Virus record (IMG/VR): IMGVR_UViG_2684622620_000016
Coordinates: 1 to 5,020 of that record
DNA: 5,020 nucleotides
DNA from: a virus
Lineage: Duplodnaviria > Heunggongvirae > Uroviricota > Caudoviricetes
Strand: one strand, 5' to 3'
Positions 1 through 5,020 of this stretch are shown here, one piece after another. The notes beneath the pieces are model-generated. The model was not told the origin of the DNA. It made no database searches and saw only the letters and a program-made list of their open reading frames with translations. The first letter of the stretch is position 1. Each line of letters begins with the position of its first letter. Position numbers and translations under genes: made by a program.

Positions 1-1
1 G

Positions 2-421
2 TCAGCTTGCCGCTTTCACGATAAACGTCACAACACCAAAGATATCCAGTGTATCTTCGCTATTTATCGTAATGGGTGCATAAGAGCTATTTTCAGGAAC
101 AAGCATAAGTATTGGATGTAACTGCAGACGTTTAACTGTGAACTCGCCATCAATGGCAGCGATAACAATATCTCCATGTGCAGGTTTTCTGGAACGGTCG
201 ACGACCAGCAAATCCCCATTACCGATCCCCGCTCCAGTCATAGAATCACCAGATGATTTCACGAAGTATGTCGCATTTGGATGCTGAACTAATATTTCAT
301 TGAGATCAATGCGTTGTTCAATGTAATCCTGCGCTGGCGAGGGAAAGCCGCATGGGACAAGATCACTAAATAAGGGAAGCGCAACTATCTGGCGCAACTC
401 AGCTGGCGAATAAAACTTCAT
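2..421 (-). CDS. umuD: UmuD-like SOS mutagenesis protein (LexA-like S24 self-cleaving peptidase fold), 139 aa
   Basis: Translation from the internal Met ([30 protein letters not shown]...GDSM...FTVKRL...) matches UmuD in length and motifs: a Cys-Gly cleavage-site-like CGF, the catalytic Ser in GDSM and the Lys in VKRL. ATG is read as cat at 419-421 and stop TGA as tca at 2-4. The ORF-track extension to 553 would run over the operator and the dinI-like start and is rejected. Any umuC partner would lie beyond the window start. Confidence 0.85.
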
Positions 422-438
422 AATAAACTCACTCACAC

Positions 439-467
439 TTACACTGTATATAAATACAGTATATACT
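439..467 (+). promoter_or_regulatory. Putative sigma70 promoter for the dinI-like gene
   Basis: -35 ttacac (439-444), 17-bp spacer, -10 tatact (462-467). LexA box 1 lies in the spacer and box 2 overlaps the -10 and +1. RBS aaagaggag at 483-491 precedes the ATG at 499. Confidence 0.4.
442..461. promoter_or_regulatory. LexA box 1 (SOS box)
   Basis: cACTGTATATAAATACAGTa: CTGT at 444-447, 8-nt AT-rich spacer, ACAG at 456-459. This is a near-perfect match to the E. coli LexA consensus TACTGTATATATATACAGTA. Confidence 0.75.
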
Positions 468-483
468 GGTATTAAACACAGTA
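464..483. promoter_or_regulatory. LexA box 2 (imperfect, CTGG-N8-ACAG)
   Basis: tACTGGTATTAAACACAGTa: CTGG at 466-469 and ACAG at 478-481. As recalled, the chromosomal dinI operator uses the same CTGT/CCAG half-site variant. It overlaps the putative -10 of the dinI-like promoter. Confidence 0.5.
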
Positions 484-498
484 AAGAGGAGTTAAAGC

Positions 499-741
499 AT
501 GTTCGTGGAACTCGTTTATGACAAAAGGAATTTTGATGGTCTGCCCGGTGCAAAAGATATCATTTTGGGCGAGTTAACCAAGAGGGTTCACCGGATCTTT
601 CCCGATGCTGATGTTCGGGTTAAACCGATGATGACACTGCCGGCGATCAACACTGATGCCAGCAAGCATGAGAAGGAACAGATAAGCCGTACTGTTCAGG
701 AAATGTTTGAAGAGGCTGATATGTGGCTGGTTGAAAACTAA
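499..741 (+). CDS. dinI: DinI-like DNA-damage-inducible protein, 80 aa
   Basis: An 80-aa product of the same size as DinI with a recognisable DinI-like pattern ([17 protein letters not shown]...[23 protein letters not shown]). Strong SD (AAAGAGGAG) 8 nt upstream of the ATG, with LexA boxes immediately upstream. Confidence 0.8.
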
Positions 742-770
742 GCGACCAAAAACCCTGATAAAAATCCAGG

Positions 771-791
771 TTACTCGGGTGAGTAATTTCG
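771..791 (+). terminator. Weak hairpin downstream of the dinI-like gene (possible terminator)
   Basis: ttactc-gggt-gagtaa inverted repeat (6-bp AT-rich stem) followed by tttcg. Weak; listed with low confidence. Confidence 0.25.
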
Positions 792-841
792 ACTAATATC
801 CATTATAAAAATGTGAAAAGAAAAGAATATTCGTCAACTCC

Positions 842-1582
842 ATGCCCATTGAATCATTGCGTGTAATCGAAATTATCAGGCGAATACCTGACTGTGCAAC
901 TGAGCCATTTCTCTGCAAATGTGACGATGGTGAGCTTTATGTTGTAAAGGGTATGCCTAGCGTTCCTCGGGTACAACTCATTGCAGAATGGGTATCAGCA
1001 CACCTTGGTTTGAAACTGGGTCTCTCATTGCCTGATTTTAGTACGGCATATGTAGACCGAGCTTTAACTCAGTATGTGCCTGAATGGCGAAATGCCTTAA
1101 ACGAGGGTTATGCGTTTGCAACAAAATTTATCCCGGGCGTAGCCCCTATAACTTTTACCCAAGCCCATACTAACGTTGACGAACAAGACCAAAAGAAAAT
1201 CTATCTCTTTGATAGATGGATAAATAACTCAGATCGTACCCTGTCACCACAGGGTGGCAACGTGAATATTATTTTTGATTACCGTAACAATAGATATTAC
1301 CTGATTGATCATAATCTCGCCTTCGACCAAAATGATGATGAGGAAGCTTTTGACTACCATGTCTATGCTCCGCGGCATCGTAAGTGGTGGTTTGACATCG
1401 TCGACAGACCGCTCTCTGAAGATGAACTAATCCGCACTAAGGAAATCCTACCTTTATGTGTAGAGAGCATCCCTGATGAATGGTTGCCAGAGACTCAAGA
1501 AGAACGAGAAGTGTGTTTGTCTCGAATTGAAACGCTATTGAATCGTAACGAAACAGATGTATTTTGGAGTAAAATCAAATGA
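842..1582 (+). CDS. Hypothetical protein, 246 aa; small HipA-like / PI3-4-kinase-like atypical kinase domain (putative)
   Basis: Long ORF. Motif FDRWINNSDRTLSPQGGN resembles the HipA catalytic loop as I recall it (FNLLIGNTDDHLKN), and YYLIDHNLAFD resembles a Mg-binding DFG-equivalent about 25 residues downstream. N-terminal YVVKG may be a beta3-Lys-like element. The SD before the ATG at 842 is poor. Spot GC counts on 60-nt lines give about 35-43%, lower than flanking genes. The family call rests on motif memory only. Confidence 0.6.
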   Translation: MPIESLRVIEIIRRIPDCATEPFLCKCDDGELYVVKGMPSVPRVQLIAEWVSAHLGLKLGLSLPDFSTAYVDRALTQYVPEWRNALNEGYAFATKFIPGVAPITFTQAHTNVDEQDQKKIYLFDRWINNSDRTLSPQGGNVNIIFDYRNNRYYLIDHNLAFDQNDDEEAFDYHVYAPRHRKWWFDIVDRPLSEDELIRTKEILPLCVESIPDEWLPETQEEREVCLSRIETLLNRNETDVFWSKIK

Positions 1583-2397
1583 CTACGCCATGTCTATACA
1601 GCATTGTAAGATATGCGCCGTTTGCTGAAACTGAAGAGTTTGCAAACATCGGCGTAGTCGTCTGCGCACCTCAAAAACACATATTCCTCTTCCGACTAAC
1701 TCAAAGTAATGACGCCAGGGTTACGTCTTTCTTCAAAGATGACACTATCTTTCCCTTGGCTAAAGATGCTGTTGCTAGGGAGCTGGCCTTTGCTCAAGAG
1801 CAGACAAAAAACGTTAAAACGGCCGATGATGTCGCCAATTTCTTCAGCTATTTGACGGCTAAAAGGGAATCAATCTTTCACTTCAGCTCAACACGTGTAG
1901 TTCTGGCTGAAAACCCAGAGCAAGAGCTACAAAGGTTGTATGCAAAATTTGTAAACCATACAGATTATAACAAAGAGCGTAGAGAAGAGATTCTTACCAG
2001 AGAGCTAAAAGGACGGCTGAATTCTTATGCAGAACTGCAGAATATTTTCCGTAAGGAAACAATCGGCGGGGATTTGATAAGGTTTTCAATGCCGTTCGTT
2101 GCCAAGCAGGAAGATGAAGTACTTTGCGCTATCAAGCCACTCGCGTTCGTCCAGCAGGAACCTGGTAAGATGATGGAACACTGCGACTCATGGGTATCAA
2201 GAGTTAAGCGAGCTGCTGATGAGAAATTGCTGAATCTAGCCAATGTTCTTTTTACCATTGATGGTCATAAAAATCCGAGCACCTCTGAAGCGAAAGCTAT
2301 GGATGAGATTAGGAGAACGTTTGACCGTAACAACCTTGCACACTTTAGACACAATGATGAAAAGTCTATAATCGATTTTGCAAAAGCATCTATCTAA
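1579..2397 (+). CDS. Hypothetical protein, 272 aa, translationally coupled partner of the kinase-like gene
   Basis: The start overlaps the upstream stop by 4 bp (ATGA at 1579-1582). GGAG SD at 1567-1570. No catalytic motif that I can recognise. The N-terminal motif YSIVRYAPFAETEEFANIGVV is faintly reminiscent of a DUF-type family (possibly DUF3037), but I cannot confirm this from memory. Confidence 0.65.
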   Translation: MTTPCLYSIVRYAPFAETEEFANIGVVVCAPQKHIFLFRLTQSNDARVTSFFKDDTIFPLAKDAVARELAFAQEQTKNVKTADDVANFFSYLTAKRESIFHFSSTRVVLAENPEQELQRLYAKFVNHTDYNKERREEILTRELKGRLNSYAELQNIFRKETIGGDLIRFSMPFVAKQEDEVLCAIKPLAFVQQEPGKMMEHCDSWVSRVKRAADEKLLNLANVLFTIDGHKNPSTSEAKAMDEIRRTFDRNNLAHFRHNDEKSIIDFAKASI

Positions 2398-2400
2398 TCG

Positions 2401-2428
2401 ACCCGGCCTATGCGCCGGGTTTTTATTT
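2401..2428 (+). terminator. Rho-independent terminator of the two-gene operon
   Basis: acccggc (2401-2407), 6-nt loop ctatgc, gccgggt (2414-2420), followed by tttttattt. This is a 7-bp GC-rich stem plus a U-tract, 3 nt after the stop at 2395-2397. Confidence 0.85.
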
Positions 2429-2571
2429 CATATTTCAGATTAGACGCCTTGAAACGTCACATTGCTTAAGTACAATCCGCTGCGACTGCCAATCATTCAG
2501 TAAACCACTACAACTATCGAACGTTCGCCAGTTCGCCGATGCCCGTTCTTGCATACGACGAGCCTGCGGTT

Positions 2572-3126
2572 TCATTTATCTCCGGCCGGAAACTTCTTAT
2601 ATAGTGTCGATACACCAACATCATAGATGATCGCCACCTTCTGGCGAGGAACTCCTGATGCAATTAATCGCCCGGCCTGCGCCCATTGTTCTGTTGTAAG
2701 TTTGGGACGACGTCCACCAATTCGTCCCTGTACACGAGCAGCTTCCAGCCCGGCTTTTGTTCTTTCAACAATCAGTTCACGCTCCATTTCAGCCAGGGCA
2801 CCCATCACATGAAAGAAAAAGCGCCCCATTGGTGTGCTGGTATCAATAGCATCCGTCAGGCTGCGAAAATTAACGCCACGTTCGCGCAACTCTTCCACCA
2901 GCACGACAAGATGCCGCATACTGCGCCCCAGTCGGTCCAGTTTCCAGACCACCAGCGTGTCACCTGCCGATAATGTCCTGAGCAGCTTTTTCAGTCCTGG
3001 TCTGTCGGACTTTGTACCGCTTATCTTGTCTTCAAAAATCAGCTCACATCCTGCACAGTTCAACGCATTACGTTGTAGATCGGTGTTCTGGTCATTTGTT
3101 GATACGCGAACATAGCCAATAAGCAT
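2572..3126 (-). CDS. pin: Serine DNA invertase, Pin/Gin/Hin/Cin family, 184 aa
   Basis: Translation from MLIGYVRVSTNDQNTDLQRNALN... (catalytic Ser in the VRVSTxxQ motif) through a C-terminal helix-turn-helix (GVPRQKVAIIYDVGVSTLYKKFPAGDK). From memory it is nearly identical to Pin of E. coli e14. Start ATG at 3124-3126 with SD AGGAGGAG just upstream on the minus strand. The 12 extra N-terminal residues in the ORF track are rejected. Confidence 0.95.
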   Translation of the reverse strand: MLIGYVRVSTNDQNTDLQRNALNCAGCELIFEDKISGTKSDRPGLKKLLRTLSAGDTLVVWKLDRLGRSMRHLVVLVEELRERGVNFRSLTDAIDTSTPMGRFFFHVMGALAEMERELIVERTKAGLEAARVQGRIGGRRPKLTTEQWAQAGRLIASGVPRQKVAIIYDVGVSTLYKKFPAGDK

Positions 3127-3180
3127 GATAGCTCCTCCTGACAAAAACAGGAACGATGCCATTTGCGCGCTATTTCTGCA

Positions 3181-3264
3181 TTTTCATAAACGTTGGTTTG
3201 NNNNNNNNNNNNNNNNNNNNNNNNNNNNNNNNNNNNNNNNNNNNNNNNNNTTGGTTTGAGAGAA
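3181..3264. other. Putative invertase crossover site (gix/pix/hix-like), interrupted by the N gap
   Basis: Left flank ttttcataaacg|tt|ggtttg (3181-3200) and right flank ttggtttgagagaa (3251-3264) resemble the 12-2-12 Gin-family site architecture (TTnnnnnAAACC NN GGTTTnnnnnAA). It is located between the invertase 5' end and the start-less fibre cassette, as at Mu gixR and e14. Confidence 0.45.
3201..3250. other. Run of 50 N (assembly gap or masked sequence)
   Basis: Directly visible in the sequence. The same octamer ttggtttg sits on both sides of the gap (3193-3200 and 3251-3258). Confidence 1.
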
Positions 3265-3885
3265 GGTTCATTTGGGTTCAGAAATCTGGTTACCTTCACA
3301 ACGGCTGGAGTAACAAGCTGGACTGTTCCTGAAGAGTTGCGCAAAGGAAGAAAATGTTACGTCAAAGTTATTGGTGGCGGTGCGTCAGGAGGGATAGGTT
3401 CAACAACCGCTTCAGCCGTTACATGTGGCGGAGGAGGTGGTGGGGGCGGAGTTGCTGAGGGACTGGTAGATTTAACTGGTATAAACAGTGTTTCGATTAC
3501 GGTTGGTGCCGGTGGTGCGCCTGTGTCTGGTATTTCTGTAAACGGTAAAAATGGTGGCTCGAGCAGTTTCGGGACTTACATGTCAGCTTCCGGAGGCTAT
3601 AGCGGAGGCCAGCCTTCCGGAGGGTTAGGCGCAGTTGGTGTCGGGGGAACAATTAATACATCGCTTGGGCCAGGTTCTCCAGGTTCCATTGCTTCTGCCG
3701 CATCGGGGGCTGGTAATGGTGGTTCTGGTGGTGGCCCCGGAGGAGCAGGTTCATTCAGAGATACAGCTAACGGAAAAGCGGTATCAGCAGTTGGGCCTGG
3801 AGGTGGCGGTGCTGGATTATGTCCTAATTCATCAACGGGTCAGTCGGGTGCCGGAGCAGATGGCGCAGTTTATATTTACTGGTGA
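3253..3885 (+). CDS. Tail-fibre C-terminal variable segment (Sv'-type), glycine-rich, start-less (5' end undefined because of the gap)
   Basis: Open frame from the gap to TGA at 3883-3885 with no plausible start or SD. The product is extremely Gly/Ser-rich with repeated poly-Gly blocks (GGGASGG, GGGGGGGG, GAGGAP, GGYSGGQPSGG, GNGGSGGGPGGAG, GPGGGGAG). Its position next to the invertase site matches the silent alternative fibre tip of Mu, P1 and e14 inversion systems (stfE-like). Confidence 0.7.
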   Translation, partial: GLREGSFGFRNLVTFTTAGVTSWTVPEELRKGRKCYVKVIGGGASGGIGSTTASAVTCGGGGGGGGVAEGLVDLTGINSVSITVGAGGAPVSGISVNGKNGGSSSFGTYMSASGGYSGGQPSGGLGAVGVGGTINTSLGPGSPGSIASAASGAGNGGSGGGPGGAGSFRDTANGKAVSAVGPGGGGAGLCPNSSTGQSGAGADGAVYIYW

Positions 3886-3892
3886 GGTTCAT

Positions 3893-4063
3893 ATGTGGGC
3901 AAGAATTGAAGAAAATAAAGTAGAAGAGATAACGGAAATTAATCCTGAAGGAAGATTCCATCCATCATTAATATGGAAAGAATGCCCTGCTGACACACAG
4001 CAGGGGGATTTATATATTGATGGTGAGTTTATTGCGCAGTCTCCGGCAGTTCAGGCCAGATAA
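3893..4063 (+). CDS. Short ORF, 56 aa, immediately downstream of the Gly-rich fibre segment; possible small cognate chaperone or truncated tail-fibre assembly protein
   Basis: ATG at 3893 preceded by GAGG (3884-3887). Product MWARIEENKVEEITEINPEGRFHPSLIWKECPADTQQGDLYIDGEFIAQSPAVQAR. It lacks the conserved tail-fibre assembly C-terminal motif. Its 3' end overlaps the convergent tail-fibre assembly gene by about 35 nt. Confidence 0.4.
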   Translation: MWARIEENKVEEITEINPEGRFHPSLIWKECPADTQQGDLYIDGEFIAQSPAVQAR

Positions 4064-4637
4064 CATCCGGCGCGGTGCTGGTATCTGTTGCCGTCACCGC
4101 GTCAATGTAATCCAACACCGTGTTAAGTCGGCTGGTTTCTGACTGCGTCAGATTCCGTCCGGCCTGTAATTTCAGCTGAATCAGACTGATGGAAGCCATT
4201 GCAGCATCAATCAGTGACTGACGCTGTGCTTCTGCCGCGTCTACTGCGGCGCTATGCTGTGCCTCAGTATCGGTCACCCATTTCTCACCATCCCATTTAT
4301 CGTATGGCGTTAATGGGGCGATAGTGGTTGTATTTTCAGGATAATCACCCGGTGCTGTGATTTCTTTCGATTCTCCTGTTTCGGTGCTATAGACGATTTC
4401 ACTGCGATGGTCTGGCACATATTCCCACGAGTTATAATCTGCAGAACGGCAAATTGCATAACCAGCTTTATATGAGCCGGGAGCATCTAAACAGGAACAT
4501 GCCGGAATGCCGACACCCACAGCAAGATATTCAGTTGATGTGAAAATATATTCCCGTGTTTCACCATCATAGTTATAAACAGTAATATTTCCTGCCTGGG
4601 TGGCGATAAATTCGTTATTTAATACGGCGTAATCCAT
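4029..4637 (-). CDS. tfa: Tail fibre assembly protein (lambda Tfa / Mu U family), 202 aa
   Basis: The C-terminus (LNTVLDYIDAVTATDTSTAPDVIWPELPE) matches the conserved tail-fibre assembly motif (lambda ...RVDTSTAPDIEWPAVP). The central PENTTTIAPLTPYDKWDGEKWVTDTEAQ matches lambda [28 protein letters not shown]. The start ATG overlaps the upstream stop in a TAATG arrangement (4635-4639), with SD GAGGG upstream. Confidence 0.9.
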   Translation of the reverse strand: MDYAVLNNEFIATQAGNITVYNYDGETREYIFTSTEYLAVGVGIPACSCLDAPGSYKAGYAICRSADYNSWEYVPDHRSEIVYSTETGESKEITAPGDYPENTTTIAPLTPYDKWDGEKWVTDTEAQHSAAVDAAEAQRQSLIDAAMASISLIQLKLQAGRNLTQSETSRLNTVLDYIDAVTATDTSTAPDVIWPELPETAQ

Positions 4638-5020
4638 TATGCAGCCCTCACGATATACGCAAATGCCAGGTTCCGTGGTCTGGTTTCTTTAATTAAAGAG
4701 GAGGCATCAGGTGAACTCACTGATTCAGCACCATTTCTTCCACCAGTGGTATAAGTAAAAACTCTTTCACTGTTAGACCAGTAATCCACACCAACTGTTT
4801 TTGCTGATGAAAAAATGGTTTCATCAGATATAACCTGTTCTATTCCATACGGGATATTAGTAACTGACCCCACTTTTGTAGGTATTCCATGATTATGAGA
4901 AATTACTGCATGCTCTTGATTCGTTAATAAAGTACGACCGCTATCCACTCCACGCCCGTCATCCCAGCCACGAATAAACTCACCACGTAAATCAGGCAAT
5001 TTATTTGTCGGGTAAGCCTT
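4637..5020 (-). CDS. Tail fibre protein, C-terminal part (phage tail-collar-like domain); partial, 5' end beyond the window
   Basis: The frame is open from the window edge (...KAYPTNKLPDLRGEFIRGWDDGRG...ETRPRNLAFAYIVRAA, then stop). The LPDLRGxFxRG and ETRPRN..YIVR motifs are typical of phage tail collar / fibre C-terminal domains. The TTG start in the ORF track at 4999 is an artefact. The stop is coupled to the tail-fibre assembly start. Confidence 0.85.
   Translation of the reverse strand, partial: KAYPTNKLPDLRGEFIRGWDDGRGVDSGRTLLTNQEHAVISHNHGIPTKVGSVTNIPYGIEQVISDETIFSSAKTVGVDYWSNSERVFTYTTGGRNGAESVSSPDASSLIKETRPRNLAFAYIVRAA

Follow-up and report, generated by a model that had tools for sequence, protein, structure and literature searches.

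A kinase/DUF3037 gene pair, probably a diverged HipAD allele, carried as cargo between dinI and pinE in an Escherichia coli prophage

The DNA examined here, called the window below, is a stretch of 5,020 nucleotides (positions 1 to 5,020 of IMG/VR virus record IMGVR_UViG_2684622620_000016, Caudoviricetes) from an e14/SfV-like E. coli prophage. Between the genes dinI and pinE it carries two overlapping genes, the first for a Ser/Thr-kinase-like protein of the HipA_2 family (246 aa), the second for a DUF3037 protein (272 aa). Features of the region are collected in Table 1. We propose that the pair is very probably a diverged allele of the two-gene anti-phage system HipAD, also named DS-6 or, in the PADLOC database, PDC-M66.

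Table 1. Features of the window around the gene pair (a dot marks features given without strand)
Feature	Position	Strand	Evidence or remark
umuD-like S24 peptidase gene	1-421	-	
Two tandem LexA boxes, divergent umuD/dinI promoter region	444-459 CTGTATATAAATACAG; 466-481 CTGGTATTAAACACAG	.	first box perfect (CTGT-N8-ACAG), second with one mismatch
dinI	499-741	+	Pfam DinI, E 4e-21; last two codons and stop supplied by the cassette (junction alignment)
Inserted cargo cassette, ~1.7 kb (leader, two genes, terminator)	734..2435	.	alignment to empty-site sister prophages
100-bp leader of the kinase gene	742..841	+	conserved with two Enterobacter loci
Gene 1, HipA_2-family Ser/Thr-kinase-like protein, 246 aa, putative toxin (HipA of HipAD)	842..1582	+	Pfam, PADLOC, PHROG, BLASTP, AF2/Foldseek, RefSeq
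Gene 1 key codons	K36 947-949; D131 1232-1234; D156 1307-1309	+	
ATGA stop/start overlap, translational coupling	1579..1582	+	read from sequence
Gene 2, DUF3037 protein, 272 aa, putative antitoxin/sensor (HipD)	1579..2397	+	
Rho-independent terminator of the pair	2400..2431	+	-15 kcal/mol, z = -3.4
pinE invertase	2572-3126	-	Pfam Resolvase and HTH_7; RefSeq pinE; convergent with the pair, 3' end facing it

The gene pair and its predicted proteins

The first-pass annotation had described two translationally coupled genes closed by a strong terminator, and this layout was recovered. Stop and start codons share an ATGA, and just past gene 2 a hairpin (2400-2421) with a stem of 8 bp, 6 of them GC pairs, is followed by a T-run; none of 200 shuffled sequences folded equally well. 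Judging by their Pfam matches, with E values of 5e-80 and 2e-24, both open reading frames (ORFs) are real genes and not chance ORFs. The two proteins also matched phage families of unknown function, PHROG 3162 (gene 1) and 5137 (gene 2). RefSeq names them, in E. coli UTAK-5, 'HipA family kinase' (WP_021578623.1) and 'DUF3037 domain-containing protein', and NCBIfam holds no specific model for either.

The gene 1 protein matched Pfam HipA_2 (PF20613) along the entire profile (positions 1-240 of 240; E 4.8e-80; 268.7 bits for a cut-off of 27). It also matched the PADLOC model PDC-M66A at 3.4e-12, over residues 7-162 only. When 61 kinase homologues were aligned, K36, E49, N129, D131, R132, G139, N140, N142 and D156-H157-N158 were found to be invariant. 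Since all of these invariant kinase residues are present, the gene 1 protein retains a complete predicted active site, in line with the short HipA-like kinase with catalytic and Mg-binding motifs that had been read from the sequence.

The AlphaFold2 (AF2) model of the gene 1 protein (pLDDT 92, pTM 0.90) was compared with solved structures using Foldseek. The closest folds were PI4K type II alpha (E 9e-6, TMq 0.53) and Fam20C, and Helicobacter pylori CtkA reached a TMq of up to 0.56; Shewanella HipA gave a weak match (E 6e-4, TMq 0.43), and Legionella HipT one with an E value of 0.013. The predicted fold is that of a kinase, with HipA and HipT among the matches, though not the best ones. Because of the solved folds nearest to the model, we consider that the gene 1 protein is, as modelled, a minimal kinase of the PI3/4K-HipA-CtkA superfamily and not a canonical HipA. 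The suggestion that it might be a split kinase did not hold: HipA_2 is a complete 240-residue family that is matched whole, and no fold resembling HipS or HipA-N was found in the partner; a split of the HipBST type was rejected on these grounds.

In the gene 2 protein, Pfam located DUF3037 (PF11236) at residues 7-125 (1597-1953; E 2e-24), and the PADLOC model PDC-M66B was matched at 8e-16. The AF2 model shows a second domain at residues 132-272 (1972-2394), which appears to have an alpha-beta-beta-beta-alpha-beta topology like that of restriction endonucleases. E136 and K186 are invariant in this domain. The two acidic positions of canonical PD-(D/E)xK enzymes are not conserved in the family, whose consensus reads MPLVA and CAIKP, so that the domain is probably a degenerate, non-catalytic relative of nucleases. 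No HMMER match to DUF1829 or to any other domain was obtained in the C-terminal half among 65 members of the family. The same 65 members gave no helix-turn-helix (HTH) match in Pfam and no HipB- or HipS-like feature was seen, which bears out the earlier remark that the partner, lying downstream, is not an antitoxin of the HipB type.

A rival view is that the roles are reversed or shared, the C-terminal domain of the DUF3037 protein acting as a nuclease effector or as a catalytic nucleic-acid sensor and the kinase regulating it. With the acidic residues missing, an active nuclease was judged unlikely, and we regard this distribution of roles as very improbable.

Conservation of the pair and its published homologues

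Conservation was surveyed in 80 species, each represented by one locus and extending from Enterobacterales as far as Pseudomonas, Shewanella and Betaproteobacteria. An ORF of the HipA_2 type lies directly upstream of the DUF3037 gene, on the same strand, at 76 of the 80 loci; at 72 of the 80, the kinase stop codon overlaps an in-frame ATG or GTG of the DUF3037 gene (ATGA or GTGA). Judged by this survey, the two genes form an obligate unit and are translationally coupled. Close relatives, in which the DUF3037 protein is 72-96% identical, were found in Atlantibacter, Enterobacter, Cronobacter, Yersinia and Serratia.

Within E. coli, a distant blastn search pointed to about 286 further genomes with a more distant HipA_2/DUF3037 pair. 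Two of these were examined and corresponded to the DS-6 allele and to a third allele; the latter follows a LexA-family repressor gene, in a prophage of lambdoid type whose replication genes are of the lambda type. Between E. coli alleles (window compared with our loci L006 and L007), the kinase diverges more (47-48% identity) than the DUF3037 partner (56-58%).

The first-pass annotation had supposed that the system might be undescribed. This was not the case, as the family is PDC-M66 of PADLOC and has been validated in two settings. In the DefensePredictor paper (DeWeirdt, Mahoney & Laub, Science 2026; PMC13092281), a two-gene E. coli anti-phage system, DS-6, was validated, in which DS-6A is a HipA-family kinase and DS-6B combines DUF3037 with a weak DUF1829 match. 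A catalytic mutation of DS-6A abolishes defence, and the mutant D139A is given in the supplementary strain table (PMC13092281). According to the same paper, DS-6 was found independently by Brenes & Laub 2025 (Cell Host Microbe) and renamed HipAD; its authors hypothesise a toxin-antitoxin resembling HipAB that acts via abortive infection. In a second report, a HipA-like/DUF3037 pair (PADLOC PDC-M66) adjoining retron Sda1 defends alone; deletion of its kinase gene led to loss of defence, and deletion of its DUF3037 gene was toxic (PMC12548924). In GenBank, the genes of phage PhiR5_1, which carries the validated allele, are already annotated 'HipA toxin' and 'HipD antitoxin'. Searching the literature for HipAD and HipD brought up nothing more of relevance.

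We compared the window with the DS-6A and DS-6B sequences of Table S8 in PMC13092281 (WP_000389051.1 and WP_000210934.1, E. coli). By BLASTP, identity is 47% between the gene 1 protein and DS-6A (241 residues, E 1e-80) and 56% between the gene 2 protein and DS-6B (269 residues, E 3e-119). D139 of DS-6A, in the motif WILNADR, aligns with D131 of the gene 1 protein, in WINNSDR, the residue that is invariant in all 61 homologues.

The cassette, its slot and its SOS neighbours

Sister E. coli prophages with an empty site, in Ecol_545 (L003) and SC476 (L004), allowed us to delimit what had been inserted. In these, the stop codons of dinI and pin lie 128 bp apart. Homology with the window ends at 732/733, within the last two dinI codons, and restarts at 2433/2436 (TCAGATTAGACGCCTTGAA). 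At the left junction, the empty site reads TGGCTGGTT followed by TCAGATTAA, whereas the window reads TGGCTGGTT followed by GAAAACTAA; the relic TCAGATTAG returns at 2436, directly past the terminator. Homology with the Enterobacter copy stops at 2424. No direct or inverted repeats and no target-site duplication were found flanking the cassette. That sister prophages exist with this site empty proves the pair to be a discrete insertion, and hence cargo.

An origin by horizontal acquisition had first been argued from base composition, with 35-43% GC for the pair and 57-62% for the umuD-like and pin genes. These figures were wrong: we measured 42.6% for the pair, 44.5% for the umuD-like gene, 45.7% for dinI, 50.1% for pin and 45.4% for the whole window. 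No flank attains 57-62%, and the pair is mildly AT-rich, hardly more so than its left neighbours. We therefore rejected GC content as a sign of acquisition, and the empty sites take its place.

The slot 3' of pinE is variable in relatives. It holds mcrA in e14 of MG1655 and Avs2 in strain 2014EL-1346-6; in F467 it is occupied by genes for an AAA-family ATPase and a hypothetical protein, in E600003 by genes for an LPO_1073/Vpar_1526-family protein and a hypothetical protein, and in PK8241 it is empty. The AAA-ATPase pair and the LPO_1073-family pair may themselves be uncharacterised defence candidates. The first proposal, that the pair was acquired horizontally and sits as cargo in a prophage hotspot beside pin, is thus supported by the empty sites and by the changing cargo, mcrA and Avs2 included. 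The analogy drawn with e14 is also correct as to position, since mcrA is directly 3' of pinE in the MG1655 e14: the window pair sits between an SOS module (umuD-like gene, LexA boxes and dinI, on its left) and the 3' end of pinE, in the same slot, where the tail-fibre module ends. The two arrangements differ in the cargo itself and in its orientation: the window pair is convergent on pin, and mcrA runs in the direction of pinE.

The gene that directly precedes the pair is dinI in the window and likewise in two Enterobacter species, Yersinia enterocolitica (where the element is a P4-like satellite) and Rahnella; it is absent from that position in Yersinia massiliensis, in Brenneria and at every distant locus. 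Five of the 7 members of the window subclade have it (window 499-841; L008 4930-5263; L012 4807-5263; L015 3921-4263; L016 3613-4263), and the linkage spans three kinds of element, e14-like prophage, smpB-adjacent prophage remnant and P4-like satellite. Two explanations offer themselves: cargo recombines into an anchor 3' of dinI, or dinI and the pair are mobile together.

This linkage suggests that the pair might instead be an accessory to dinI within the SOS response: transcribed together with dinI from the LexA-controlled promoter of that gene, it would serve DNA-damage or prophage-induction physiology and not immunity. Besides the recurrence of dinI, the LexA boxes that precede it in the window and at both Enterobacter loci are consistent with such a role. 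No convincing plus-strand terminator was found between dinI and the kinase gene, and given this and the boxes, SOS read-through from dinI into the pair is possible. The empty-site prophages, however, keep dinI without the pair, and E600003 carries other cargo between a DinI-like gene and pinE; for these two reasons the space 3' of dinI is a general cargo slot. Moreover, the validated alleles and all distant homologues occur without dinI, and a LexA box upstream of dinI was looked for without success at the Yersinia and Rahnella loci. A role confined to SOS physiology is, in our opinion, barely credible.

A variant that keeps the defence function would be an SOS-coupled HipAD specific to the window subclade. 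Here dinI and the pair would form a three-gene unit read through from the LexA-controlled promoter, the kinase would be boosted upon DNA damage or prophage induction, and the degenerate nuclease-like domain would be a nucleic-acid sensor releasing the kinase. We hold this to be unlikely; if true, the window allele would show how HipAD senses infection.

The kinase gene may also have a promoter of its own in its leader, with a -10-like TAATAT at 794-799; a sigma-70 consensus scan of the leader returned no strong site. The leader contains inverted half-sites, ATATCC (796-801) and GAATAT (826-831), the second being GGATAT at the two Enterobacter loci. The classical HipB operator, TATCC-N8-GGATA, has the same half-sites, but here they are spaced by 20-27 nt; they may be an operator or a coincidence. 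Just past the dinI stop codon there is a short hairpin, CCTGATAAAAATCCAGG (754-770), which is conserved at the Enterobacter loci and there reaches a 9-bp stem (CCCTGATAA/TTATCAGGG). As no plus-strand T-run follows, it is not a clear dinI terminator.

Some observations concern the surroundings of the slot. The umuD-like gene is an intact ORF of 139 codons in the window, and RefSeq calls it a frameshifted pseudogene in UTAK-5, a strain 100% identical to window positions 1-3190. Farther to the left of this gene, UTAK-5 has umuC and a gene for an SOS-response-associated peptidase (SRAP). In the same strain (L001 5879-17000), a P4-like satellite at tRNA-Pro, with genes for an integrase, an Icd-like protein, a primase, a capsid-protease fusion and a small terminase subunit, abuts the umuDC-dinI end of the e14-like prophage, the two elements being in tandem. 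To the right of pinE, a run of 50 N at 3201-3250 of the window coincides exactly with the Pin crossover repeat (AACGTTGGTTTG, N50, TTGGTTTGAGAGAAGG). UTAK-5 is uninterrupted there (AACGTTGGTTTGGGAGAAGG) and continues into a different tail-fibre C-terminus, so that the window comes from another assembly or another orientation of the invertible segment, and the N-run probably an assembly gap. Positions 3251-3885 hold a glycine-rich ORF (GC 52.8%) beside pin, then short tail-fibre-assembly-like ORFs on both strands, which is the usual invertible host-range module of e14- and Mu-type tails.

Proposed function and comparison with known systems

Taking the evidence together, we consider it highly probable, by analogy with the published homologues, that the pair is a diverged HipAD allele (DS-6/PDC-M66), a kinase-based, toxin-antitoxin-like anti-phage module carried as prophage cargo. 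The kinase-based toxin-antitoxin or abortive-infection module first suggested for this locus is accordingly the best reading as to role. A function in defence and its dependence on the kinase are taken from the papers on homologues; for this allele we infer toxicity, neutralisation by direct binding, a trigger, a substrate and abortive infection.

The mechanism would be as follows. The 246-aa HipA_2 kinase would be the toxic effector, with K36 binding ATP, D131 belonging to the catalytic loop and D156 binding Mg. The coupled DUF3037 protein would bind the kinase and hold it inactive in uninfected lysogens, acting as neutraliser and possibly as sensor. Upon phage infection, the kinase would be released or activated and would phosphorylate an essential host or phage target, so that infection is aborted. 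The cassette itself is a self-contained cargo of 1.7 kb in an e14/SfV-like E. coli prophage, where it occupies a variable slot bounded by dinI and the 3' end of pinE.

Several points weigh against this proposal. As the window proteins share 47% and 56% of their residues with the tested system, they could differ from it in phage specificity and even in activity. The allele is rare, with 3 occurrences among 5426 complete E. coli genomes. Support for neutralisation by direct binding comes from AlphaFold3 models of DS-6 made by others, with ipTM values of 0.76-0.79. Lastly, single-sequence and profile searches of the PDB found no relative of either family, and there is no solved structure.

A toxin-antitoxin architecture with coupled genes would equally suit an addiction module, which stabilises the prophage or the cassette and has, for the window allele, no role in phage defence. 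The mobility of the pair, found in several types of element, and the toxicity observed when the DUF3037 gene of a homologue was deleted (PMC12548924) agree with this. Yet two independent homologous pairs protect from phages in a kinase-dependent manner (PMC13092281, PMC12548924), and in sister prophages the slot holds bona fide defence genes, mcrA and Avs2. Addiction without defence is, to our mind, quite improbable.

If the pair is indeed HipAD, the kind of system is already known and no new kind is revealed. What would be new is a third HipAD allele of E. coli, which is rare and has diverged strongly, together with a second type of prophage slot (dinI-pinE, e14-like). The empty-site comparison delimits the mobile cassette exactly and provides a clonable unit for comparing phage specificity among alleles. 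The degenerate PD-(D/E)xK-like C-terminal fold of the partner and the recurring linkage to dinI are leads on how infection may be sensed.

Compared with known systems, the window pair is closest to HipAD/DS-6. Protein lengths are 246 and 272 aa in the window versus 249 and 275 aa in DS-6, and the gene order is equal, with a 4-bp overlap that is likewise seen in the DS-6 coordinates (2415..3164 and 1591..2418). Both are prophage cargo in E. coli, and both keep the catalytic Asp. The window allele differs at about half of its residues and in its location, in the dinI-pinE slot of an e14/SfV-like myovirus, whereas the validated allele stands right after cI, in a rexAB-like slot of lambdoid prophages. 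PDC-M66 (PADLOC-DB v2.0.0), whose two models are matched by the two window proteins, is for its part a bioinformatic candidate definition. The pair adjoining retron Sda1 has the same two domains and is there a standalone defence; the window differs from it in having neither a retron reverse transcriptase (RT) nor a retron non-coding RNA (ncRNA) beside the pair, the latter because an Rfam scan of the window matched no RNA family.

With classical HipBA and HipBST, the window pair shares the kinase superfamily and the logic of a kinase toxin and a cognate neutraliser. It departs from HipBA in that the gene 1 protein has no match to Pfam HipA_C, HipA_N or Couple_hipA, HipA_2 being the only family matched at E <= 1, and in that it is about 200 residues shorter than HipA (~440 aa). 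Its best structural neighbours are PI4K type II, Fam20C and CtkA, not HipA. The gene upstream is dinI and not an HTH protein gene of the HipB type, while the partner lies downstream and is unrelated to HipB or HipS. From HipBST, finally, it is set apart by a partner that lacks a HipS-like fold matching the N-terminal subdomain of HipA.

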